From NCBI GenBank assembly GCA_965208835.1, contig OZ242358.1, forward strand, positions 448,001 through 512,000: DNA of 64,000 nt, in the 5' to 3' direction. The first letter of the stretch is position 1, and the number at the start of each line of letters is the position of its first letter. Position numbers and translations under genes: made by a program. The stretch comes from Candidatus Latescibacterota bacterium (GTDB taxonomy: Bacteria > Latescibacterota > UBA2968 > GCA-2709665). Under the pieces are notes generated by a model that saw only the letters and a list, made by a program, of their open reading frames with translations, was not told the origin of the DNA and did no database searches. Below, piece by piece: positions 8,230-50,895 of this stretch.

Positions 8230-9390
8230 CTACGTCGGCGGGACGATCGCCCCGCTCCACAGCCGGTCGAGGAAATCCCGCCAGGGCAGGATCAGAATAC
8301 CGTCCGCGGTCCGGCGGGGACTCGCCTCCCGCGAAACGACGAGAAACAGGGCTACGTTGAACTCTTCTTTGAATGCGCGAATCCCCTTCAGGTGCCTGTC
8401 CTGGATCCGGGACGTGGACTTGACCTCGAGTGCGACGTCGCCAAAGATGAAGTCGACTTCGCGGCCTGACGTCGTACGCCAATAGGATATCGGGAAAAAT
8501 GTCCCGGAATAGCTGGAATACGCGGACAATTCCATGAATATGAAATGTTCGAAAGCGCGTCCGAACAGCTCCGAACCCGGCTGGACATGCCCACGTCCTG
8601 TCAGGTGCGCCACCACGCCAATATCGAAGAAATAGAACCGGGGCGCGCTGACTACGCGGCGCTTGGCGCGTCTGCGAAACGCCGGTACGAAGCTCCCGAT
8701 CAGAGTATCTTCCAGGATCTGGAAATAGCCCTTCGCGGTGGGCGCGCTCACACCGCATTCCGCGGCGATCGTGTTGTAATTGATCAACTCGCCGTTCGAC
8801 AGCGCAGCCACCTCGAGGAACCGGCTGAACGCGGGGATATTCCGCGTCAACGCTTCGGCCGCGATTTCCTCCCGAAGGTAATCGCCGACATAGGCCTGAA
8901 TCAACCGGCGCGGCCGGGCGCTCCGGTAATGCCGGGGCAGCAGACCGGCATTCAGTGCCTTTTCGAGCGAAAATTCCGGGATCTCGGCAGCAACAAATGG
9001 ATGCAGCTGATATCGGACCGCCCGTCCGCCGAGCAGATTGCCGCCGCCGCGTTTCAACTTCCTCGCGCTCGAACCACACAAGAGAAAACGCAGCCCCCTG
9101 TTTTCCCCGAGCCAGTGCACCTCATTCAGTAGGTCGGGAATCCTCTGCACTTCGTCGATCACAATGGGATCGTCCTGCGAGTCGCCGTCCAATCCTGCAG
9201 CGAGACATTCCTCGCGAATCAACTCGGGGCGGTCGACCAGCGCACGATACACGTCTGCCAGCAGGAGGTCGTAACGCCTTGCCCGGGGAAACAACGAACG
9301 GATGAGCGTGCTCTTGCCGGTCTGCCGCGGCCCCCACAGGAAGCACGTCTGTTCTCCCGTCAAATCTAAATTTAATATTCGATTATACAT
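8230..9390 (-). CDS. AAA_14 ATPase with DUF4143 and C-terminal PD-(D/E)xK-like domain
   Basis: GPRQTGKST, IDEVQ, LCGSS, RFYFFDIG, YWRTTSGREVDF..LEVK. Confidence 0.9.
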   Translation of the reverse strand: MYNRILNLDLTGEQTCFLWGPRQTGKSTLIRSLFPRARRYDLLLADVYRALVDRPELIREECLAAGLDGDSQDDPIVIDEVQRIPDLLNEVHWLGENRGLRFLLCGSSARKLKRGGGNLLGGRAVRYQLHPFVAAEIPEFSLEKALNAGLLPRHYRSARPRRLIQAYVGDYLREEIAAEALTRNIPAFSRFLEVAALSNGELINYNTIAAECGVSAPTAKGYFQILEDTLIGSFVPAFRRRAKRRVVSAPRFYFFDIGVVAHLTGRGHVQPGSELFGRAFEHFIFMELSAYSSYSGTFFPISYWRTTSGREVDFIFGDVALEVKSTSRIQDRHLKGIRAFKEEFNVALFLVVSREASPRRTADGILILPWRDFLDRLWSGAIVPPT

Positions 9391-37529: not shown

Positions 37530-37757
37530 AGCAGACCTCCTTATATTTGTGAAACTTCGGGACGCTCCGGTTTACCGGGCGTTTTCGGGTAACCGAAACC
37601 CTTCCAACGCTTTTGCGAATACTGAGACCGGTACCGGACAGGATAATAAAGAAAGGAACTGGAATATCGATGTCAAGGGATTTATCGAAAACAGGCGCAT
37701 CATTTGTCTGGCAGTGTTCGGACGGCGCCGATGCCTGAAGTAAAGAAAGAGGCCGCC

Positions 37758-40208
37758 ATGCAATCCCATGCGCGCCTGGTTGTGATCGGCGCCGGCATCG
37801 TTGGCTGCAGCGCGGTCTACCATCTTACGCGAATGGGCTGGAAGGACATTGCGGTCCTGGACCAGGGGCCGCTGTTCGATACCGGCGGCTCGACGTCCCA
37901 CGCGCCGGGGCTGGTCTTCCAGACCAACTTTTCAAAGATGATGACCGGCCTGTCGGGAAAGACCGTTTCGTTGTACAACTCCCTGGACCTGGACGGGGAT
38001 CCCTGTTTTTATCCTGTCGGGAGCTTCGAAGTCGCTTACACCCCCGAACGCTTGGTAGACCTGAAACGCAAACTGGGCGCCGCCAGATCCTGGGAGCTGG
38101 AAGCCCATCTCATGTCGCCTGAAGAGGCCGGATCCAGGCTCCCTCTGCTCGATGCGGATCGGATTCATGGCGCGTACTATGTTCCCTCCGACGGCATCGC
38201 CAAAGCCGTACGCGCCTGCGAGGCAATGGCGCGCGCGTCGGAACCCGGCGCCGCGTTTCACGGTAAAACCACAGTCACCGGTATCGAGGTCGCCAACGGC
38301 ACGGTGAGGGGGGTAAATACCGACCGGGGCCGCATTGCCGCGGACCACGTGTTGATCTGCGCGGGAATCTGGGGCCCTCGCATCGGCCGCATGGCGGGCA
38401 TTTCCATTCCGCTCACCCCTGTGCAGCATCTCTACGCCCTCACCGCGCCGCTGCCGGAACTGGCGGGAGAAACCCGCGAAGTCGTCCATCCCATCCTGCG
38501 CCACCAGGACTCCGCCATGTATTTCCGGCAGCATGGCGACCGGTATGGCATCGGGTCCTACAGACACGAGCCGCTTCTGGTGCGTCCGGACGACCTGGTC
38601 AGCCCGGATGAAGCCAGGCTTTCACCCTCCATCATGGAGTTCACCCCGGAGCACTTCGCGGCGGCTCGCGAAGCGGCGGACGAACTCCTTCCCGCCCTCC
38701 GGAACGCTATGTTCGACTACCGGATCAACGGTCTCTTCTCCTTCACGCCGGATGGGCTGCCCCTTCTCGGAGAGTCCGTTGACGTTCGCGGTCTCTGGGT
38801 TGCGGAGGCCGTGTGGATCACGCATGGCGGCGGCGTCGGGCAGGCCGTTGCGGAATGGATGGATTCCGGCGCGTCCGAAATCGATCTGGGTGACGCCGAC
38901 CTGAACCGCTTCGGTCCGCACGTCCACACCCGGGAATATGTCGAAGCCCGGGGGGCGCAGCAGTACCGCGAGGTGTATGATATCATCCACCCGCTGGAAC
39001 AGATGGACCATCCGCGCGGCCTGCGTGTGAGCCCGTTTCATCCGCGGCTTGAGAAACTCGACGCGGTGTTCTTCGAAAACGCCGGATGGGAGCGCCCGCA
39101 GTGGTTTGGCGCCAATGGCGTCCTGGTGGACGTGGAAGACGACCTGCCATCGCGCGCCGGGTGGGAGGCGCGGTACTGGTCTCCCATCCAGGGTGCGGAA
39201 CACCGGGCCACGAGGCGCGGCGCGGGGCTGTGCGACATCACCCCGTTCACGAAGATCGAAATCGCCGGCGCGGGCGCCATGGATTTTCTGCAGCGCATCG
39301 CCGCCAACCGGATCGACCGGCCGGTTGGAACGGTGATCTATACGGCGCTGCTCAACGCGAGGGGCGGCATTGTCGCCGACCTGACCGTCACCCGCGTGGC
39401 CGCGGACCGGTTCCTGGTTCTCACCGGCGCCGCGTCGGGGATTCGGGATCTGGCGTGGATTTTCCGCCACGCCCGGGATGAACGCGCCGTTCACGTCGCG
39501 GACGTGACCTCCGCCCGTTGCGGCGTGGGCCTCTGGGGGCCCGAAGCCCGAAGGATTCTCCAGCGGGTCTGCGGTGACGATCTGACGAACCGAGCGTTCC
39601 CCTATTTTTCAGCGCGGGAGATCCGGATCGGCGCCGTTCCCGCCCTCGCGCTGCGGCTGTCCTACGTGGGAGAACTGGGTTGGGAGCTCTACGCCCCGGC
39701 TGAATTCGGGCTCCGCCTGTGGGACACGCTCTGGGAGGCCGGCGGCGACCACGGGCTCGTCGCGCTGGGCGGCGGGGCATTCGACTCGCTCCGCCTTGAA
39801 AAGGGATACCGGCTGTGGGGCGCGGATATCCACACGGAGTACAACCCGTATGAAGCCGGCCTCGGATGGGCGGTCAGACTCGATAAGGGCGACTTCACGG
39901 GGCGGGACGCCCTGCTGAGAATCCGGGAAGAGGGAATCCAACGGAAGCTCTGCTGCCTTACCCTGGACGATCCGGAAGCGGTTGTGATGGGCAAGGAACC
40001 CATACTGGACGGCAGCCGCGTTCTCGGGTACGTCACCAGCGCCAATCACGGTTACACCGTCGGCCGATTCATCGCCTATGGCTACCTGCCGCTGGAATAC
40101 GCGCAGCCTGGCACATCCGTGGAAATCGAATACTTCGGCGAACGCAATCCGGCCACGGTCTCGCGCGAACCGCTCTACGACCCCCGCGGGGTGAAAATGA
40201 AATCGTGA
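37758..40208 (+). CDS. Dimethylglycine oxidase/dehydrogenase-type FAD oxidoreductase with GcvT domain
   Basis: VVIGAGIVG, GSTSHAPGL, FSFTPDG, AVWITH, SYVGELGWE, SLRLEKGY. Confidence 0.9.
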   Translation: MQSHARLVVIGAGIVGCSAVYHLTRMGWKDIAVLDQGPLFDTGGSTSHAPGLVFQTNFSKMMTGLSGKTVSLYNSLDLDGDPCFYPVGSFEVAYTPERLVDLKRKLGAARSWELEAHLMSPEEAGSRLPLLDADRIHGAYYVPSDGIAKAVRACEAMARASEPGAAFHGKTTVTGIEVANGTVRGVNTDRGRIAADHVLICAGIWGPRIGRMAGISIPLTPVQHLYALTAPLPELAGETREVVHPILRHQDSAMYFRQHGDRYGIGSYRHEPLLVRPDDLVSPDEARLSPSIMEFTPEHFAAAREAADELLPALRNAMFDYRINGLFSFTPDGLPLLGESVDVRGLWVAEAVWITHGGGVGQAVAEWMDSGASEIDLGDADLNRFGPHVHTREYVEARGAQQYREVYDIIHPLEQMDHPRGLRVSPFHPRLEKLDAVFFENAGWERPQWFGANGVLVDVEDDLPSRAGWEARYWSPIQGAEHRATRRGAGLCDITPFTKIEIAGAGAMDFLQRIAANRIDRPVGTVIYTALLNARGGIVADLTVTRVAADRFLVLTGAASGIRDLAWIFRHARDERAVHVADVTSARCGVGLWGPEARRILQRVCGDDLTNRAFPYFSAREIRIGAVPALALRLSYVGELGWELYAPAEFGLRLWDTLWEAGGDHGLVALGGGAFDSLRLEKGYRLWGADIHTEYNPYEAGLGWAVRLDKGDFTGRDALLRIREEGIQRKLCCLTLDDPEAVVMGKEPILDGSRVLGYVTSANHGYTVGRFIAYGYLPLEYAQPGTSVEIEYFGERNPATVSREPLYDPRGVKMKS

Positions 40209-40302
40209 CGGGCTAAACCGGGTGTGCGGGAATAAGGGTACCCGCGAGGGGTGCACGGCGTTACCGAGGCGGGGATCTGTTGTGCCATCGACAGAGAACC
40301 CA

Positions 40303-40488
40303 GGGCACCCACAAGGGGTGCCCCTACGACGTCGTGGTCGGTCGTGGGGGATTGCGTTGGAGAGGTACAGACGAATTCGGGGAACACGTCGAATGGAATC
40401 TTGTACGTTGAATTGAGGACATATGTTGCGATGTCTGACCACCTGGGTGGGATTGTTCCAGGTGTAAGGGCGCCCCTTGTGGGCGCTC
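40303..40488 (+). repeat. Junction J1: REP(-) 40303-27 / 136 nt / REP(+) 40464-88
   Basis: GGGCACCCACAAGGGGTGCCCCTAC ... GTAAGGGCGCCCCTTGTGGGCGCTC. Confidence 0.9.
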
Positions 40489-40526
40489 TTACGTTTTGCC
40501 ATTGCCGCGCAGTGAAACGCGTTTTC

Positions 40527-40570
40527 AAAAAAGACAGACCCCCTGGGGAAACTGAATCTCCCAGGGGGTC
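40527..40570 (-). terminator. Probable terminator of the RDD gene
   Basis: GACCCCCTGGGGA...TCCCAGGGGGTC hairpin with an A-tract to its left. Confidence 0.6.
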
Positions 40571-40596
40571 ACATGTGTGTTGTCCGGAAATTCGTT

Positions 40597-41058
40597 CTAA
40601 TTCTCCTCGCGATCTTCTTTATTAACGATTATACAACCAGCAATCATATCGTGAAGGGTCTGCTTTCGTTCAGTAAACGCCGCCATAACATAACCAATAT
40701 AGGCAGTCATTCTGGAGATCATCTTTGCAAAATGACGACCGGAAGCTCGCGCAAACGAAATACGGTTTCCCTTGAGATCGGTAACTACAATGCCGAGAGC
40801 CAACTTGCCTAACGTGGCTTGTAGACTGGAAGATTCCATTATGGCATAGTATAGCCAATCAATGGAGAGATAGCAGATCAGGAAGCCGATCATCACAGTA
40901 ACAAAAAATGCATCTCCTGCGAGAAATGCACCCGCCGTACGCGTACCGAAGTCATAGAACCAGGCGCCCAAAGCAGCATATATTCCAGCAAATGTCCCGG
41001 TAATCAACACGTCAACAATAGCTGCTGCAAAACGCTTCCAGAATCTTGCAAGGGTCAT
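40597..41058 (-). CDS. RDD family membrane protein
   Basis: FWKRFAAAIVD, QATLGKLALGIVV, KQTLHDMIAG; AGGAGG RBS; lower GC than the flanks. Confidence 0.9.
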   Translation of the reverse strand: MTLARFWKRFAAAIVDVLITGTFAGIYAALGAWFYDFGTRTAGAFLAGDAFFVTVMIGFLICYLSIDWLYYAIMESSSLQATLGKLALGIVVTDLKGNRISFARASGRHFAKMISRMTAYIGYVMAAFTERKQTLHDMIAGCIIVNKEDREEN

Positions 41059-41429
41059 CTTTCGCCTCCTGCGGTATCTAACCTTGATTTGTAAGTCTTC
41101 GGGAACGATAATTCGAATATGTGCTTGTAAATAAAGGCGATTAAACGGCGGATTACCAGGATACACCAGGTCACTGGACGTCAAGGGAAAAGACGTCATT
41201 CCATACGTCGATATTGCCCCGTTTAGGAGGGTTTTATCGCGTCGCCGCGTTGCAGTTTTTTTCGGATTGAGGATGATGCCACCTCAAACCACGGTTACCG
41301 TGAGTTTAGACAACAAGGTATCTTCGTTTGTTTCAAGATCAAAACAGCTCCGACACCTGCTGAACCAGGTACCGTCCCGTTCCACGGATCCGACGGAATG
41401 GAAATCCGCAGGATTGACGTCTTAGCGGG

Positions 41430-41465
41430 GACGTCGACGTCATCAGTCCTTGGGAACCGCAGTGA
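41430..41465 (+). pseudogene. 3' relic of a vapC/PIN gene
   Basis: DVDVISPWEPQ* matches DVRVINPWERR* of 42889-43308, with the same 15-nt distance to the next REP. Confidence 0.6.
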
Positions 41466-41480
41466 CCTGGAGAGAAACCA

Positions 41481-41667
41481 GGGCACCCACAAGGGGTGCC
41501 CCTACACCATCACGGTCGGTCGTGGATGAATGAGGAGGAGAGGTACAGGCGAATTGGGGGAACATTCTGCACCGATTGAAATCCGCTGGATTGACAACAA
41601 ATGTTGCGATGTCTAACCACCTGCGCGGAATTGTACGAATTGTAAGGGGCGCCCCTTGTGGGTGCCC
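41481..41667 (+). repeat. Junction J2: REP(-) 41481-505 / 136 nt / REP(+) 41642-67
   Basis: Same layout and core as J1, J3 and J4. Confidence 0.9.
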
Positions 41668-41693
41668 GCCTGTCTTTTGCCTCGCTTGAGAGC

Positions 41694-41728
41694 TTGACAT
41701 CGCCCGATAAAGTAATTACTATAATTAC
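41694..41728 (+). promoter_or_regulatory. mazEF promoter with overlapping palindromic operator
   Basis: TTGACA-N17-TACTAT; GTAATTA-CTA-TAATTAC at 41712-41728. Confidence 0.7.
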
Positions 41729-41770
41729 ATAACGTCCTTCATAGTTTAAATCCAACCAGAGGTCAGCAAT

Positions 41771-42013
41771 ATGGCAATCCGGGATGTCAAACTTATCGCT
41801 ATTGGCAACTCCAGGGGTATTCGGCTACCGAAAGCTGTGCTGCAGAAATACGGATGGGGAGACTCGCTCGTAATGGAAGAGACCGAACGAGGGATTTTGC
41901 TTTATGGGAAAGAACGTAACAAGCTGTCCTGGAAGGAAACATACCGCGAGATGGCCGCTGAGAATGAAGACTGGAGCGACCTCGATGCGACGATCTCCGA
42001 TGGTCTGGACTGA
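41771..42013 (+). CDS. mazE: AbrB/MazE-family antitoxin
   Basis: KLIAIGNSRGIRLPKAVL; acidic C-terminus; TGATG coupling to the toxin. Confidence 0.88.
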   Translation: MAIRDVKLIAIGNSRGIRLPKAVLQKYGWGDSLVMEETERGILLYGKERNKLSWKETYREMAAENEDWSDLDATISDGLD

Positions 42014-42345
42014 TGTCCACATTTCCCCGCCGATACACGATATATTTGGCCGACCTCAATCCCACCGTCGGTGGAGAAATCCGAAAGGTTCGCCCGGTTG
42101 TGGTCGTCAGTCAGGATGAGATGAACAGGTTTCTGGATACGGTAGTCGTCTGTCCTCTTACCTCGTCGCTCCATCCTCATTGGCGGGCTCGAATGCAGGT
42201 CGAATGTGCAGGCCGAGAGGCTGAGATTGCTGTGGACCAGATTCGCACCATTAGCAAACAGAGACTTAAGCAACGAATTGACAATCTGTTCGCCGACGAA
42301 GCGGCGCAACTCCGCCGCCTCATCACCGAGATGTACGGGGAATAG
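42013..42345 (+). CDS. mazF: PemK/MazF-family endoribonuclease toxin
   Basis: LADLNPTVGGEIRKVRPVVVVS..VCPLTS..DQIRTISKQRL. Confidence 0.92.
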   Translation: MSTFPRRYTIYLADLNPTVGGEIRKVRPVVVVSQDEMNRFLDTVVVCPLTSSLHPHWRARMQVECAGREAEIAVDQIRTISKQRLKQRIDNLFADEAAQLRRLITEMYGE

Positions 42346-42551
42346 CGACAATCATGGGAAGCTGTGGATTCAACTGGAGCAGTCAACACAGTCGCTCGAA
42401 CTGAGATTGGGGTTCTCCTGCGATATAAGGGCTCGTGTATACCGCAGCGAATCTGACGTAAGAAAATCGGCATGGTCGATTCGTCGACTGGTCTGGCCGG
42501 TCCTCATTGATCGAGGATCGGCTTTTATGTGGTTCTCCTGCACAGACCGCC

Positions 42552-42589
42552 TTGATTTTAGGATGAACATAGACTATATTGGACTATAT
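42552..42589 (+). promoter_or_regulatory. Promoter/operator of the phd-vapC pair
   Basis: TTGATT-N17-TATATT with GACTATAT direct repeats at 42572 and 42582. Confidence 0.55.
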
Positions 42590-42607
42590 CTGTCGAGAGG
42601 AGATAAA

Positions 42608-42892
42608 ATGACCATAGAATATGGCAAGCCAGGCCGGGTCTGGACGGTCGCGGAGGCCAAGGCGCGCCTGTCGGAAGTCCTCCGCCTTTCCGTAGACGAA
42701 GGCCCGCAGCGCATCGGTGTGCGAAGGGGGTACGTTGTGGTGCCGGAGCACGTATGGAAGGCTCAATCGTCACCGCGCAAGCCGCTCGGCCAGTGGTTGA
42801 TCGACAACATGCCGCGCGGCGCGAATCTCGACATTCCTTCCGATCGAATGTCCCGGCGGGAGATCCCGTTCGCCGACGGAGGCGCAGTGTGA
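42608..42892 (+). CDS. Phd/YefM-family antitoxin
   Basis: WTVAEAKARLSEVLRLSVDEGPQRI; start reset to MTIEYGKP. Confidence 0.85.
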   Translation: MTIEYGKPGRVWTVAEAKARLSEVLRLSVDEGPQRIGVRRGYVVVPEHVWKAQSSPRKPLGQWLIDNMPRGANLDIPSDRMSRREIPFADGGAV

Positions 42893-43308
42893 ACGGGTTT
42901 CTCCTGGATACCAACGTTGTCTCGGAACTGACCAGGGCCGAGCCGGACGGGAACGTTATGGCATTCCTGGCTGCGCATCATGATCTGTGGCTGTCCGCCA
43001 TCGTGGCGCATGAACTGGAATTCGGATTGCAGTTATTGCCTCACGGTCAGCGGCGTGACCTGTTGAGCGCCGCGCTGTCGGGGATCTTCACCGAATACGA
43101 GGACCGTGTCCTTCCTGTCGACAAGGAAGTGGCAGAGTGGGCCGCTGTCTTTCGATCGCAGGCGCATCGAGACGGACGGATGCTGGATCTTGGGGATGCA
43201 CTCATCGCCGGGACCGCCCGGGCCCACGATCTGTCGGTTGCAACCAAAAACATCGCCGACTTCATCGGCCTGGACGTCCGCGTCATCAATCCCTGGGAAC
43301 GGCGGTGA
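42889..43308 (+). CDS. vapC: PIN-domain (VapC) toxin
   Basis: FLLDTNVVSE, ELEFG, DALIAGTA, TKNIADF..INPW; GTGA overlap with the antitoxin. Confidence 0.92.
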   Translation: MNGFLLDTNVVSELTRAEPDGNVMAFLAAHHDLWLSAIVAHELEFGLQLLPHGQRRDLLSAALSGIFTEYEDRVLPVDKEVAEWAAVFRSQAHRDGRMLDLGDALIAGTARAHDLSVATKNIADFIGLDVRVINPWERR

Positions 43309-43323
43309 ACAAGAAATAAACCA

Positions 43324-43643
43324 GGGCACCCACAAGGGGTGCCCCTACACCTTCACGGTCGGTCGTGGATGAATGAGGAGGAGAGGTACAGGCGAATTGG
43401 GGGAACATTCCGCACCGATTATCATCCGATGATTTGATAACATATGTTGTAAATCCCAACCACCTGCGCGGAATTCTTCCAATTGTAGGGGTACCCCGTG
43501 TGGGTGCCCGCCTCCCCCGACATCCGTAAAATTACCTGGGAATACACGTTGGTAGGGGCACCCCTTGTGGGTGCCCGCGTGTCTCGACATCCGCATAATT
43601 GCCTGGGACAATACATCCGTAGGGGCGGCCGTTGTGGGCGCCC
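43324..43643 (+). repeat. Junction J3 plus three direct REPs at 67-bp period
   Basis: REP(-) 43324-48, 136 nt, REP(+) at 43485, 43552 and 43619 with mutually similar linkers. Confidence 0.9.
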
Positions 43644-43767
43644 TGCCTTTTTTTGTGCCAACGAATCCTTGACATCATGCAGTAAAGTAACTATATGAAT
43701 TCTGTAGCCGAAAGAATTCAGCAGGGGTCCGCAGAAGTTGCGGGCTAATCCAGTGTATGGAGGAAAT

Positions 43768-44052
43768 ATGATTCGACCAACCGATGTCGAACCGCGAAGC
43801 GGCCACCGAATCTGGCTTCGTTTCTCGGACGGCGCCGCCGGAGAAATCGACCTGTCTGAACTCGCCGGCCGTGGTGTATTCGAGTCCTGGAACAGCCGAA
43901 CCTTCTTTGAGAATGTGCAAATAACGAAGAACGGGGGTGTCGCCTGGGGTAAGGATGTCGAACTGTGTCCGGATGCTCTTTATTTAAAGCTTACCGGCAA
44001 ATCCGTAGAGGATGTAATGCCGGATGTAAAGGCTCTGCTGGAAGATGCCTGA
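43768..44052 (+). CDS. DUF2442-family protein (putative antitoxin)
   Basis: IWLRFSDGAAGEIDLS..GVF..VAWGKDVELCPDALY. Confidence 0.85.
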   Translation: MIRPTDVEPRSGHRIWLRFSDGAAGEIDLSELAGRGVFESWNSRTFFENVQITKNGGVAWGKDVELCPDALYLKLTGKSVEDVMPDVKALLEDA

Positions 44053-44305
44053 GCTCTGCCGCTTCTACGGAATTATCATACGAATATACTTCGACGATCA
44101 CGCACCTCCTCACTTCCACGCAACCTATGGCCAAGAGGAGGCGGTCGTCGGCATTGATAGTTTGACCGTTTTGCAGGGGCGTCTACCGCGTCGGGCTATT
44201 GGGCTGGTTGTGGAGTGGGCGTCACTTTATCAGGACGAGCTACGGCAAGCCTGGATTCGGGCGAAGCGCCTCGAATCGCCGGGAAAGATCGCACCTCTGG
44301 ACTGA
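44045..44305 (+). CDS. DUF4160-family protein (putative toxin)
   Basis: MPELCRFYGIIIRIYFDDHAPPHFHA..VVEWA..IAPL. Confidence 0.9.
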   Translation: MPELCRFYGIIIRIYFDDHAPPHFHATYGQEEAVVGIDSLTVLQGRLPRRAIGLVVEWASLYQDELRQAWIRAKRLESPGKIAPLD

Positions 44306-44379
44306 TCTGGCGCTACCTTTTCTACACATTTGCCACGATCTTTGTACGTCCGATTTTCGGCAGCTCTGACTTTGCGGCT

Positions 44380-44555
44380 TCCGCGGGGTTTGCTGACAGG
44401 ACTGCACGGCGGATTCTGGTTGTCTTGTGCGAAGGGGATGTGGACTTGACCCGATTTGGTGGAGCGAGCGCGATGAGGTACGCATTGAGCTTGCCGCATA
44501 ACTGTCGGAGCTATTTTTCTCATACCAGGCAATTGCCAACCGGAAGCCTTCAATT
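44380..44555 (-). pseudogene. Possible decayed ParE/RelE-type toxin
   Basis: FRLAIAWYEKNS..LHQIGSSP then, after a frameshift, RIRRAVLS; weak resemblance. Confidence 0.35.
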
Positions 44556-44598
44556 CGTCCCCTACTCCACGCACGTGTACTATATTATCCCGACGATT

Positions 44599-44636
44599 TA
44601 CTCAATACGTTGAGTATTTTTTCTCAATGCATTGAG
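44599..44636. promoter_or_regulatory. Tandem palindromic operator-like sites
   Basis: TACTCAA-TACG-TTGAGTA (44599-616) and CTCAATGCATTGAG (44623-36). Confidence 0.5.
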
Positions 44637-44696
44637 TAATCCGTCATTTTGGCGTTTGCGAGGCGGAGACCTGTTGTGCCATCGGCATAGAAACGA

Positions 44697-44948
44697 GGGC
44701 ACCCACAAGGGGTGCCCCTACACCATCACGGTCGGTCGTGGATGAATGAGGAGGAGAGGTACAGGCGAATTCGGGGAACATGCCACACAGATTATCATCC
44801 GATGAATTGAGAACGAATGTTTCAATTTCTGACCACCTGCGCGAAATTATCCCGGTCGTAGGGGCGCCCCTTGTGGGCGCCCGCCTGCCTTGACATCCAC
44901 ATAATCGCCTGGGATGTGCATTTGTAGGGGCGTACCTTGTGGGTGCCC
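44697..44948 (+). repeat. Junction J4 plus a second direct REP
   Basis: REP(-) 44697-721, 136 nt, REP(+) at 44858 and 44924. Confidence 0.9.
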
Positions 44949-45106
44949 TGTCTTACCCAGAAACTGGTGAAAATCCTACATGTCGGCACGTTGCTTGCAA
45001 CACCGAAAACAGGTCCACGAGATGATTGGATTTGCAGGAACGCCCCATGTAGCCGCCACAGCGAAAACCTGGTCAAACCCGAGGGTCGCCCTTTCACGGG
45101 AGAATC

Positions 45107-45715
45107 GTGTACGATCCGGAAATCCACCATCGCCGGTCGATGAGACTGAAGGGATACGACTATTCACAGGCAGGGGCGTACCTTGTAACTGTTGTCGCAC
45201 AGGGCCGGATGACGCTGTTTGGCGACGTGGTTAAAGGTCGGATGCAGTTGAACCCGGCCGGAGAAATGGTCCAACGAATATGGATTGAAATGCCTACTCG
45301 ATTCCCACCAATCGTTATCGACACATTTGTCGTCATGCCAAACCACTTACATGGAATCATCATTCTGGCAGGTGTGGACCTTGCGGGCACCCCAAATACC
45401 AACGAATGTTCGGACGTCGATATAAAAACCAGGGGAACAACATGGGTCGCCCCTACAGAGGATGGTCGCACAAGACTGGGGAATGTGGTCGGCGTATTTA
45501 AATCACTGACAACGTTGGGATATACGCGTGGCGTGCGCGATATGAACTGGCCGCCGTTCCACCGACGGTTGTGGCAGCGGAACTTCTACGAACATATCGT
45601 TCGGACCGACGCGTCATTACAGAAATATCGCAAGTATATTGTCGACAATCCCGTACAATGGCCATTTGACCGGGAGAACCCGAGGGCCGCAAGTCCCATG
45701 TTGCATTCGCCATAA
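45107..45715 (+). CDS. rayT: REP-associated tyrosine transposase (RAYT/TnpA-REP, Y1 HUH family), apparently intact
   Basis: HHRRSMRLKGYDYSQAGAY, VVMPNHLHGI (HUH), LWQRNFYEHIVR, YIVDNP (catalytic Tyr); flanked by REPs. Confidence 0.9.
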   Translation: MYDPEIHHRRSMRLKGYDYSQAGAYLVTVVAQGRMTLFGDVVKGRMQLNPAGEMVQRIWIEMPTRFPPIVIDTFVVMPNHLHGIIILAGVDLAGTPNTNECSDVDIKTRGTTWVAPTEDGRTRLGNVVGVFKSLTTLGYTRGVRDMNWPPFHRRLWQRNFYEHIVRTDASLQKYRKYIVDNPVQWPFDRENPRAASPMLHSP

Positions 45716-45754
45716 TCATCGATATTCCGGCTATCGCCTCAATACGCGCAACCA

Positions 45755-45992
45755 GGGCACCCACAAGGGGCGCCCCTACACGGTACGGGGTATACAATTT
45801 TCGACCAGATCGGATGAACGAATGAAATTGTAGGGGCGTCCCTCGTGGGCGCCCGTCCTTCCAGGATGCAAACGTCGCCACCACGAAAACCAGGGCACCC
45901 ACAAGGGGTGCCCCTACACGGAACGTGTAATACAATTACCAACCGGATCGTATGGATGATTGAAATTGCAGGGGCGTCCCTTGCGGGCGCAC
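45755..45992. repeat. BIME-like alternating REP array (138-bp period)
   Basis: REP(-) 45755, REP(+) 45830, REP(-) 45893, REP(+) 45968; the two 50-nt linkers are similar. Confidence 0.9.
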
Positions 45993-46032
45993 GGTCTTCC
46001 GATTATCTTTTTTGAAAAACGGAGAAATTTCG

Positions 46033-47022
46033 ATGCCCGAATCGATATTGGAAAGACTGAATGAGGGGGTGGTGCTGGGGGACGGGGGGTACCTGCTCGC
46101 CCTGGAGAACCGGGGCTACGTTCAGGCCGGGCCGTTCACGCCGGAAGTGACGATTGAGAATCCCAACGCGCTTCTGGCCCTGCACGAGGAATTCGTGCAC
46201 GCCGGCGCGGAGGTGCTGCAGGTACTCACGTTCTACGCCAGCGAAAACAAGCTGGCGCAGACCGGCTACGCGGGGAGGCTGGAAGAGATCAACCGCGCGG
46301 CCGTCAGGATCGCCCGCGAGGCCGCGGCCGGCAAGGCCTTGGTGGCCGGAAATATCTGTCTCACGTGGAAGTACCCCGAATCCGAGGACGAATGCCGGCG
46401 GCTGTTTGACACCCAACTCGGCTACCAGATGGCCGAAGGCGTCGACTTCATCATCGGCGAGACGTTCCTCCACGTGGGCGAGGCTCTCATCGCCCTCGAA
46501 TGTGCCCGAAAAACCGGCCTGCCCGCGGTGATCACAATGGCATTCGAAGGCCCCGAGACGCGGGACGGAAAAACTCCGGGTGAGGCCGCGCGCATGCTGG
46601 AGGGCGCGGGCGCCGACGTCGTGGGCGCAAACTGCTGGCAGGATCCCACTTTCATGCTCCCCGCCATCGAGCAGATGCGAGAGGCGGTAACCTGCCACGT
46701 GGCCGCCCAGCCGGTCGCCTATCGATGCACGCCCGAAGTGCCCTTCTTCACCGGCCAGCCGGGCTTTCCGGACAAGCTCGATTCGTTCAAGATCAGCCGC
46801 TACGAAATGGGCGATTTCGCCCGCAAAGCCTTGGACCTCGGCGTGAATTTTATCGGCGGTTGCTGCGGCTGCGAGGGTTCGCACGTCCGCCAGATGGCGC
46901 GCGCAATCGGCAAGATGCCCGCTGAAGAGCGCGAATGGGACGCGGACTACGGGAAACCCCAGTCGGCGACAGAAGCGTACAGAGATATCCGGGAGCAGTC
47001 CGGCGCCGCTCCCGGGGGATAA
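46033..47022 (+). CDS. Homocysteine S-methyltransferase family, betaine-homocysteine methyltransferase-like
   Basis: GDGGYLLALENRGYVQAGPFTPEV, GANC, IGGCCG. Confidence 0.85.
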   Translation: MPESILERLNEGVVLGDGGYLLALENRGYVQAGPFTPEVTIENPNALLALHEEFVHAGAEVLQVLTFYASENKLAQTGYAGRLEEINRAAVRIAREAAAGKALVAGNICLTWKYPESEDECRRLFDTQLGYQMAEGVDFIIGETFLHVGEALIALECARKTGLPAVITMAFEGPETRDGKTPGEAARMLEGAGADVVGANCWQDPTFMLPAIEQMREAVTCHVAAQPVAYRCTPEVPFFTGQPGFPDKLDSFKISRYEMGDFARKALDLGVNFIGGCCGCEGSHVRQMARAIGKMPAEEREWDADYGKPQSATEAYRDIREQSGAAPGG

Positions 47023-50631: not shown

Positions 50632-50895
50632 CTTCCGCTCCTTTCCACAATCGCCAAGGCATCACTTATTTGCTCGATTTCAAGTACAAAATACCACAGG
50701 ATCGAGGATCTTCCAAGCCAAGATTTCCTGCCGGGAATCTTGCGTCCTTCCGCGATAGCAGGAACGATTTTTAACTGGTATTTTTCCGAAACCACTGTAT
50801 TTTTAGACCGAAGTTTCCGCTCCCCGCTACCTCCCCCGTATTGCACCATCCTCCCGTTTCAATCGAACCCGCCTCCCTCGCAGAGGAGCCCGTTT

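Follow-up and report, generated by a model that had tools for sequence, protein, structure and literature searches.

The closest described relatives of the locus reported here are REPtrons, in which a REP-associated tyrosine transposase (RAYT) accompanies its repetitive extragenic palindromes (REPs) and the inverted REP doublets known as REPINs. The Escherichia coli enzyme, TnpA-REP, needs a GTAG foot, cuts only single-stranded DNA (ssDNA), does so at CT up to more than 400 nt from the REP, and transfers strands; models for tandem amplification of bacterial interspersed mosaic elements (BIMEs) have been proposed from this activity (PMC3333891). The same source places the E. coli REPtron at one locus (yafL-fhiA), where tnpA-REP has been excised in 7 strains with BIMEs left behind, and where the REPtron has been replaced by the toxin-antitoxin (TA) genes hicAB in 24 strains. 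REPIN spacers are reported to vary within a genome, from 34 to 110 bp in Pseudomonas fluorescens SBW25, and tandem REPIN arrays are described as having no accepted mechanism (PMC3337134). A preprint on the E. coli mobilome, as far as its available text goes, reports no circular DNA from REP regions (10.1101/2024.07.17.603846). Here we describe a RAYT gene and a set of long-spacer REP doublets interleaved with TA and other small genes in a 64,000-nt stretch of DNA (the window) from Candidatus Latescibacterota bacterium (GenBank assembly GCA_965208835.1, contig OZ242358.1, positions 448,001 to 512,000). The array lies between a DMG-oxidase-like gene on the left (DMGO; DMG, dimethylglycine) and a methyltransferase gene on the right (MT). 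The reading we prefer, to which we give a probability of roughly 0.6, is that a REPtron occupies a core defence and TA hotspot, where local amplification has multiplied its long-spacer REPIN subfamily; the co-oriented copies would serve at most as homology for recombination and probably as terminators.

The repeated unit, which we call J, consists of a minus-oriented REP ending in CTAC, a spacer, and an inverted plus-oriented REP starting with GTAG or GTAA, where a REP is scored as a 25-mer. Four J units of about 197 nt, all in the same orientation, were found at the locus by reading of the sequence, by a repeat finder and by alignment. They and the further REP copies around them are as follows.

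40297..40493, plus strand: J1, long-spacer REPIN (REP(-) ending CTAC, 136 nt, REP(+) starting GTAA); sequence, repeat finder, alignment.
41475..41671, plus strand: J2, long-spacer REPIN; sequence, repeat finder, alignment.
43318..43514, plus strand: J3, long-spacer REPIN; sequence, repeat finder, alignment; its positional ortholog in relative G006 has a 99% identical spacer.
43552..43643, plus strand: two additional REP(+) copies in a 67-nt tandem unit (REP plus 42 nt); repeat finder, REP scan.
44691..44887, plus strand: J4, long-spacer REPIN; sequence, repeat finder, alignment; the ssDNA fold pairs the REP arms around a large loop.
44924..44948, plus strand: additional REP(+) copy; REP 25-mer scan.
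45750..46000, plus strand: two ordinary REPINs with 50-nt spacers (45750-45862 and 45888-46000), in tandem with a 138-nt period; repeat finder, REP scan, fold.

The right-hand REP starts with GTAA in J1 and J2 and with GTAG in J3 and J4. The repeat finder joins the four into one family of 224 nt with 67-85% identity to the reference copy, and their alignment has a mean column identity of 83%, the spacer being conserved too. The first-pass annotation of this DNA had described four copies of a fixed junction (REP-CTAC, 136 nt, GTAG/GTAA-REP), and all three approaches bear this out; a spacer of 136 nt was counted there in 4 of 4 copies, and a fixed 25-mer scan gives 136 or 137 nt. A BLAST search with the spacer against the whole genome (5,180,620 bases in one contig) returned four matches, every one of them in the locus. 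The REP 25-mer, with up to five mismatches allowed, has 93 copies in the genome, 15 in the 6-kb locus and 78 outside. Given the whole-genome spacer search and this concentration of REPs in 6 kb, the J arrangement is far from chance. The copy number of the 67-nt REP unit differs between genomes. The J spacer also contains, on its minus strand, a small open reading frame (ORF; MFP.FACTSPP...), but the start codon is not conserved among 23 copies and we treated the frame as non-coding.

Ordinary REPINs in this genome have the form CTAC, 50-55 nt, GTAG. There are 14 such doublets, 12 outside the locus and two just right of the RAYT gene, and the polarity of J is the same as theirs. As ssDNA, J4 is predicted to fold at -41.9 kcal/mol (z -3.74) with its REP arms paired around a loop, and an ordinary REPIN pairs its arms likewise (z -3.66). 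A consensus fold of the 23 J units found in the genus contains 28 predicted pairs, the 20 outermost of which join both REP arms. Because J shares polarity and fold with ordinary REPINs, it is a long-spacer REPIN, and the cargo genes lie between REPINs, in the polarity opposite to that of a REPIN. It had been proposed that each cargo block is itself a REPIN enlarged to 1.0-1.7 kb. The bounds behind this proposal hold, as every cargo block, and the RAYT gene with them, is flanked by a GTAG-REP on one side and a REP-CTAC on the other; however, this polarity is opposite to that of the genome's 14 REPINs. Nor does the array end at the RAYT gene as first supposed, since the two 50-nt-spacer REPINs come after it.

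The two forms of REPIN differ in distribution, the short one being dispersed genome-wide whereas J is confined to the locus, and this confinement of J to its home locus is unusual. The REPIN adjacent to the RAYT gene (45755-45854) has a twin 2.67 Mb away (genome 3160545-3160644) with which it shares 49 of 50 spacer bases, which suggests recent dispersal or transposition of the short form from the REPtron and is likely a trace of it.

The RAYT gene lies at the right end of the locus and contains a REP-like pair of its own.

45107..45715, plus strand: RAYT, with HUH and Tyr motifs; NCBIfam NF047646, alignment.
45368..45459, plus strand: in-frame REP(+)...REP(-)-like pair within the RAYT ORF, amino acids 88-125; repeat finder, alignment.

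The ORF is open over 202 codons. Its match to NCBIfam REP_Tyr_transpos has an E-value of 1.2e-15 and 57.6 bits, below the cut-off of 80, and is split by an insert; the match to Pfam Y1_Tnp reaches only E 0.12, and that to the TnpA-REP structure (PDB 4er8) is weak (E 0.007). In an alignment, the H-x-H following VMPN and the tyrosine in WQRNFYEH are conserved across four orthologs, two paralogs and six distant homologs. The four full-length orthologs, from the source genome (G000) and the relatives G011, G008 and G002, are 72-83% identical and have both motifs intact. The gene had been described as intact, and the open frame with its HUH and Tyr motifs agrees with this, but the frame contains a 38-amino-acid in-frame insert of REP-like DNA located between the two motifs, with a REP(+)-like sequence at 45368-45392 and a REP(-)-like sequence at 45430-45457. 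The ratio of nonsynonymous to synonymous substitution (dN/dS) is 0.17-0.55 in the two core parts of the gene and about 0.8-4.2 in residues 88-125. A recognisable REP stands at the equivalent place in RAYT orthologs (L001 889-913, L017 9984-10008, L015 110-134), and peptides that look like translated REPs stand there in RAYT homologs from other phyla (for example L020-L025, L031, and L037 near 8256-8386). Intragenic REPs are known in other genes (PMC3733652). We found no description of REPs inside RAYT genes in a literature search that took in the main text of that paper but not its supplementary list of intragenic REPs.

On its left the RAYT gene is flanked by REP(+) copies at 44858 and 44924, and on its right by REP(-)/REP(+) doublets at 45755-45854 and 45893-45992. 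The locus RAYT is single-copy in the source genome, and orthologs occupy the same hotspot in G011, G008, G006 and G002. Away from the locus, the source genome has two RAYT paralogs (3110093-3110605 and 4005870-4006382), which match the locus RAYT at 44% and 40% identity and are each flanked by a second REP family with a CGGCCG-centred palindrome and about 15-20 genome copies by BLAST coverage. One of these paralogs bears its own, different REP at the equivalent relative position in the ORF. Since there are two paralogous RAYTs with a second REP family, the genome appears to hold at least two RAYT/REP systems.

For the comparison with relatives (G001-G015, of which G015 belongs to a neighbouring genus, the genus set being 15 genomes) we located MT orthologs, fetched 14 neighbourhoods and completed islands with 4 further stretches, which gave eight islands. 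In 41 genomes (the source genome and 40 relatives) the J spacer had 20 matches in 7 genomes, all of the same genus and all in hotspot stretches, and a sensitive local BLAST search raised this to 23 J units in 8 islands among the 15 genus genomes, co-oriented within each island. In all eight genomes that have J, it always lies between the DMGO side and the MT side of the same hotspot. The order of modules from DMGO to MT is given below for each island, with relics in parentheses.

G000: J, RDD, J, mazEF, phd-vapC, J, DUF2442-DUF4160, (Fic relic), J, RAYT.
G011: RDD, J, phd-vapC, J, second mazE, (Fic 3' relic), J, J, J, RAYT, J.
G009: REP, RDD, J, phd-vapC, second mazE, SoFic, J, J; no RAYT.
G006: RDD, J, phd-vapC, J, second mazE, Fic, MmeI-type restriction-modification (R-M), further genes, J, RAYT.
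G004: J, RDD, phd-vapC, J, second mazE, HEC-01A/B (AAA_21 + DUF4276), MmeI, HATPase, Dcm, Vsr, PDC-M02B, SIR2, DUF1828/1829, DUF4143 ATPase; no RAYT match.
G008: J-like doublet, mazEF, phd-vapC, doublet, second mazE, HEC-01-like, MmeI, R-M genes, DUF4268, J, RAYT.
G007: 78-nt doublet, (RDD 3' relic), mazEF, phd-vapC, REP, MNT, DUF2442, HEC-01, J; no RAYT.
G002: other defence-type genes, J, J, RAYT, J; the MT gene is missing and the DNA beyond is syntenic.

DMGO and MT bracket the island in seven cases, and the hotspot is at the same chromosomal site in all eight. The DMGO ortholog borders the island in G011, G009, G007, G006, G004 and G008. Island length ranges from about 4.8 to about 17 kb, and the GC content is 47-59% in the island and 62-68% in the flanks. 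All 10 cargo proteins tested from relatives had matches in PADLOC (SoFic, HEC-01A/B, type IIG and type II R-M, PDC-S01, PDC-S65, PDC-M02B and PDC-M24B). Thus cargo content differs between islands, and J is restricted to the hotspot in every genome that bears it rather than scattered along the chromosome; on both counts the expectations of the first-pass annotation came through. The locus is a core defence and TA hotspot in the sense used for such regions in PMC10250203.

Two further observations concern the surroundings of the islands. In G009 the DMGO ortholog (L002 5689-8190) is in three pieces in different frames (amino acids 1-152, 153-404 and 405-834), which suggests frameshifts or assembly errors. 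Another dispersed repeat of about 165 nt (about window position 50824; L017 14406-14572), with roughly 100 copies of up to 97% identity in the source genome, marks the break in synteny between G000 and G002.

Modules common to at least two islands keep their relative order in all eight, and the differences are ones of presence or absence. Most cargo breakpoints are not at REPs. The mazEF difference begins about 25 nt right of the REP(+) of J2 and stops at 42495, where the terminator hairpin of mazF starts and no REP is present. The alternation of DUF2442-DUF4160 with the second mazE and Fic begins in a common 5' untranslated region (UTR) near 43731 and ends within the Fic gene, and neither the alternation of Fic with HEC-01 beside MmeI nor the loss of RDD in G007 has a REP at either end. 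Defence blocks of 9-12 kb in G004, G006 and G008, with up to ten genes, contain no REP. The J copies themselves carry pieces of neighbouring DNA: J2 and J3 share 52 nt of the 3' end of vapC, J1 and J4 share 42 nt on the left, and J3 and J4 share REP-plus-42-nt units on the right. Since they share flanking DNA, the copies were duplicated as larger segments, and the duplicated flanks fit segmental duplication or recombination better than precise excision and insertion. We found no second copy of cargo or J elsewhere in the genome; cargo paralogs elsewhere are at most 45% identical, and none of these distant ones lies within 1.8 kb of a REP. Between DMGO and RDD, G011 has no such element at all, G009 has one REP, G007 has a doublet with a 78-nt spacer, and J is found there in other genomes. 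A single REP is the reported leftover of REPIN excision (PMC3337134).

The anatomy of the locus, its polarity, the restriction of J to it, the variation between genomes and the breakpoints are all seen directly; the steps that follow are our interpretation. A single-copy, vertically inherited RAYT with its own REP and REPIN cluster would reside within a genus-wide hotspot between two conserved metabolic genes, and J would be a member of that RAYT's REPIN family with a long spacer of 136 nt, not 50-55 nt. Amplification of J would have been confined to the locus, with the copies in direct orientation and often accompanied by pieces of adjacent DNA, and would have come about likely by cut-and-rejoin or tandem amplification of the TnpA-REP type, by unequal homologous recombination, or by both. 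Turnover of the cargo would be mainly ordinary hotspot dynamics, in which low-GC modules of horizontal origin come and go through deletion and through recombination in the conserved flanks. Co-oriented J copies may act as portable homology that lets units drop in and out, among them RDD with its J, RAYT itself and the extra REP units. Judging from consensus scans only, the REP(+) copies with their T-runs probably terminate or insulate the neighbouring operons.

Several observations weigh against this reading. The RDD-plus-J block of G000 sits where G008 has one J-like doublet, and it has a J on either side. RAYT has J or REP copies to its left and right, and three islands lack it (G009, G007 and G004, which keep J units and whose fetched stretches gave no RAYT match). 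The same block of J, REP and promoter precedes different genes in different genomes. In a tree of J copies, those from the same position are often not nearest relatives; three G002 copies group, as does the post-vapC pair of G000 and G006, and the copies are short and the tree poorly resolved, with 3 of 20 inner branches well supported, which leaves it compatible with positional orthology, gene conversion and movement alike. Passive accumulation and recombination at J account equally well for J-bounded insertions and deletions and the other points above. The 6.5-12.3 kb fetched beside MT in G001, G003, G005, G010, G012, G013, G014 and G015 contained neither DMGO nor cargo nor J, and the J spacer had no match in these genomes. 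Finally, J is confined in all eight genomes while short REPINs disperse, which the REPtron literature, in the portions drawn on here, does not predict and which hints at a locus-specific role.

The explanation given at first is an HUH-driven platform on which RAYT would use J hairpins as ssDNA recombination sites to capture, excise and reshuffle gene blocks, by analogy with attC sites but with a Y1-HUH enzyme. We consider it quite unlikely. J would then be a locus-bound RAYT recombination site, and cutting and rejoining at or near co-oriented copies during replication would add, delete or exchange units of a module with its J, a chain of events that we find hard to credit. It seems just as improbable that these units (RDD with J, a TA operon with J, RAYT with J) would make the REPtron a Y1-HUH analogue of an integron that edits a defence and TA island. 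The locus restriction and co-orientation of J, the cargo that differs among relatives, the long hairpin J forms as ssDNA, and the J or REP copies on both sides of the RDD-plus-J block and of RAYT, the latter being placed like each cargo block between a GTAG-REP and a REP-CTAC, would all agree with it. Imprecise breakpoints are compatible as well, given cutting and strand transfer by TnpA-REP at CT more than 400 nt from a REP in E. coli (PMC3333891).

What counts against capture itself is the polarity of the cargo, opposite to that of the genome's REPINs, together with the collinear module order in 8 of 8 islands, the cargo swaps with at most one breakpoint near a REP (mazEF; DUF2442-DUF4160 and the second mazE with Fic; HEC-01 and Fic by MmeI), and the 9-12 kb blocks of up to ten genes that lack REPs. 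Islands without RAYT (G009, G007, G004) still vary in content, J copies were duplicated along with flanking DNA, and neither cargo nor J has a second copy elsewhere in the genome. In a crude tblastn comparison of 12 cargo proteins with 80 loci of RAYT homologs, which registers similarity to these 12 proteins only and is not a scan of families, the 76 loci outside the genus islands gave three weak matches (27-30% identity). Some events do suit exchange at J, namely the presence or absence of J itself, the RDD-plus-J block, the missing RAYT, the varying number of 67-nt REP units and the J tree that departs from position, but homologous recombination between co-oriented repeats explains every one of them without RAYT. 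The variability and locus restriction noted for the proposed platform stand, and several features argue against the capture of genes by RAYT, which we hold to be improbable. Public reads from four runs, assembled as short-read contigs that break at REPs, contain REP-to-REP joints with 21-31 letters on the shorter side, which could come from possibly any REP in the metagenome. In contigs from another sample (X23), two joints resemble arrangements seen in relatives: one leaves out mazEF (43653 back to 42494, side 102), and the other leaves out RAYT (44914 to 45972, side 57).

The genes and sites of the locus other than J and RAYT, with the two core flanks, are listed below.

37704..40208, plus strand: DMGO, left core flank, DMG-oxidase/sarcosine-dehydrogenase-like (DAO + FAO_M + GCV_T + GCV_T_C); Pfam.
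40597..41058, minus strand: gene for an RDD-family membrane protein; Pfam PF06271, E 5.6e-24.
41079..41272, strand not assigned: insertion of an unrelated miniature inverted-repeat transposable element (MITE) of about 195 nt; BLAST, 91 matches.
41429..41474, plus strand: relic of the vapC 3' end, duplicated along with J; 41429-41480 against 43272-43323, 79% over 52 nt.
41694..41722, plus strand: promoter-like site of mazEF (TTGACA, 17 nt, TACTAT); consensus scan; conserved in G008 and G007.
41771..42345, plus strand: mazE-mazF (MazE antitoxin, PemK/MazF toxin); Pfam.
42495..42523, plus strand: terminator-like hairpin 3' of mazF, right breakpoint of the mazEF difference, no REP; consensus scan, comparison.
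42608..43308, plus strand: phd-vapC (Phd/YefM-like antitoxin, PIN toxin); Pfam.
43668..43731, plus strand: common promoter and 5' UTR block; repeat finder, comparison with relatives.
43768..44305, plus strand: DUF2442-DUF4160 pair, putative TA-like; Pfam.
44311..44442, plus strand: remnant of a Fic/SoFic gene; tblastn, 73% over 44 amino acids to the intact Fic of G009.
44587..44690, plus strand: conserved region 3' of the Fic gene, always immediately left of the RAYT-side J; BLAST to G011, G009 and G007.
46033..47022, plus strand: MT, right core flank, homocysteine S-methyltransferase-family gene; Pfam.

Pfam agrees with the first calls for RDD (on the minus strand), MazE with PemK/MazF, Phd with PIN, and DUF2442 with DUF4160. 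The toxins score over the cut-off (PemK E 3.9e-26, PIN E 1.1e-13) and the antitoxins below it (MazE 24.6 against 24.7 bits, Phd 17.7 against 29.8 bits). As adjacent small genes of matching families, MazEF and Phd-VapC qualify by their sequences as putative type II TA modules. The mazEF pair is present in G000, G007 and G008, with no tblastn match in the fetched islands of G011, G009, G006 and G004; phd-vapC is in seven of the eight islands, G002 being without it, and DUF2442 is found in G007 too. Relics were identified by comparison with relatives and not by Pfam, which gave no match at E up to 10 for the relic ORFs (41267-41425, 44215-44613 and overlapping minus-strand ORFs). The vapC relic, whose reading frame resembles the VapC C-terminus, is real but short, with about 52 nt from the 3' end of vapC adjoining J2 on its left. 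The sequence first read as a possible parE relic is what is left of the 3' part of a Fic/SoFic gene. G009 has this gene intact, and the protein there has 378 amino acids, Pfam Fic_N and Fic domains, and a PADLOC SoFic match at E 2.7e-110. The MITE, which sits just upstream of the RDD gene, has about 90 copies in the genome, with 89-95% identity among the best matches listed; it has no counterpart here in G011, in G009, or in a 990-nt contig of a second strain from the source sample.

Arrays rich in TA genes are typical of chromosomal integrons. A decayed classical integron, with attC sites overlooked and REPs that invaded later, would account for the cargo on this ground, and we regard it as extremely unlikely. 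Only two tyrosine recombinase genes of the genome match PF00589; they map to 3.90 and 4.95 Mb, which puts each of them over 3.4 Mb from the locus at 0.49 Mb. The intergenic DNA of 40209-46032 is fully accounted for by J and other REPs, promoters, terminators, the MITE and gene relics. In addition, the RDD gene runs counter to the other genes, and a promoter-like site of its own serves each operon.

Promoter-like sites lie ahead of both mazE and phd. A block composed of REP, promoter and 5' UTR, with a GAATTC-type inverted repeat, precedes DUF2442-DUF4160 in G000, and the same 43668-43731 block precedes the second mazE homolog in G011, G009, G006 and G004. In G007 an MNT gene is inserted between a block of this type and DUF2442. 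The block looks like a case of promoter sharing or swapping among unrelated small operons. The region downstream of Fic contains, at 44587-44650 and directly left of J4, two short perfect palindromes, which could be a terminator or an operator.

A consensus scan counted 15 terminator-like sites, compared with 6.0 +/- 2.7 in shuffled sequences. Among them are REP(+) copies with T-runs that lie shortly before the next promoter (41647-41667 and 43634-43648), and the left REPs score on the minus strand. These sites bear on an alternative in which the J and REP arrays are kept as cis-acting RNA or DNA elements (terminators, mRNA-stabilising hairpins, or insulators between TA operons) and RAYT is their historical source only. 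In several genomes J keeps its place behind vapC and behind the RDD-side relic, and it persists in islands without RAYT; these facts and the attenuation roles of REPs discussed in PMC3337134 speak for this explanation too. Nevertheless, we judge it unlikely. A 25-nt hairpin would be enough for such functions, which leaves the conserved length of 136 nt unexplained, the spacer has no significant Rfam match (best E 0.07), and compensatory change is seen in 3 of the 28 predicted pairs. J copies differ by about 15-30%, the same range as the synonymous divergence (dS) of 0.26-0.40 of RAYT between these genomes, and there is thus little sign of constraint beyond the REP arms. The Rfam matches in 39500-46500 at E up to 1 were the ylbH leader (E 0.07 and 0.085, in J3 and J2) and psaA (E 0.29); they are below threshold and we attribute them to chance.

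Two questions meet at this locus, namely how systems enter and leave core defence hotspots that have no evident mobile element, and what RAYT and its REPINs do for the host: a REPtron sits within a defence and TA hotspot, with one REPIN subfamily amplified only there, in at least eight genomes. It offers a natural series for asking whether REPIN arrays serve as portable homology or as RAYT substrates that speed the turnover of an island, and why one REPIN form disperses while another stays home. Its interest rests on the confinement of J to the home locus, the genus-wide association of REPtron and hotspot, and the in-frame REP within RAYT. If it were true that RAYT moves gene blocks, the locus would represent a new class of gene-capture system.

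Four kinds of described system resemble the locus in part. Elements of the IS200/IS605 type with passenger genes likewise have a Y1-HUH enzyme and hairpin ends; at the present locus RAYT and each cargo block lie between a GTAG-REP and a REP-CTAC. Here, however, no second copy of the block or of J was found in the genome, and RAYT is single-copy and syntenic across the genus. Chromosomal integrons also have small modules, often TA modules, split by an imperfect-palindrome repeat that folds as ssDNA, with content that varies. In contrast, there is no IntI nearby, the repeat is a GTAG-footed REP doublet, and the operons have their own promoters and mixed strands, a conserved module order and most breakpoints off the repeat. 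With core defence hotspots, such as cDHS1 and cDHS2 of Pseudomonas aeruginosa and the hotspots of E. coli, the locus shares a variable low-GC region between core genes with TA, R-M and defence content and no integrase (PMC10250203). It differs in that a REPtron co-occupies the site and REPINs punctuate its TA end, which is not described in the available portion of that paper.

The likeness is closest to the REPtrons, or REPIN-RAYT systems, of E. coli (TnpA-REP and BIMEs) and P. fluorescens SBW25. The locus is classed as a REPtron on its HUH/Tyr protein, cognate flanking REPs, dispersed REPINs and one vertically inherited RAYT per REP family, and its RAYT would be expected to bind, cleave and rejoin single-stranded REP DNA as E. 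coli TnpA-REP is known to do (PMC3333891). Common to all are that single RAYT for each REP family at a fixed locus with cognate GTAG-footed REPs, genome-wide REPs arranged as inverted doublets that fold into long hairpins, variable spacers, and tandem arrays by RAYT. Some relatives have lost RAYT and kept REPs, as have E. coli B2 strains (PMC3333891; PMC3337134), and the E. coli REPtron locus alternates with a TA operon, hicAB (PMC3333891). In contrast to these systems, a doublet with a 136-nt spacer is confined here to the RAYT's own site, where it alternates with blocks of gene size across 5-17 kb, as seen in at least 8 genomes of one genus. The present RAYT bears an in-frame REP pair, and the host belongs to an uncultured lineage of Latescibacterota.

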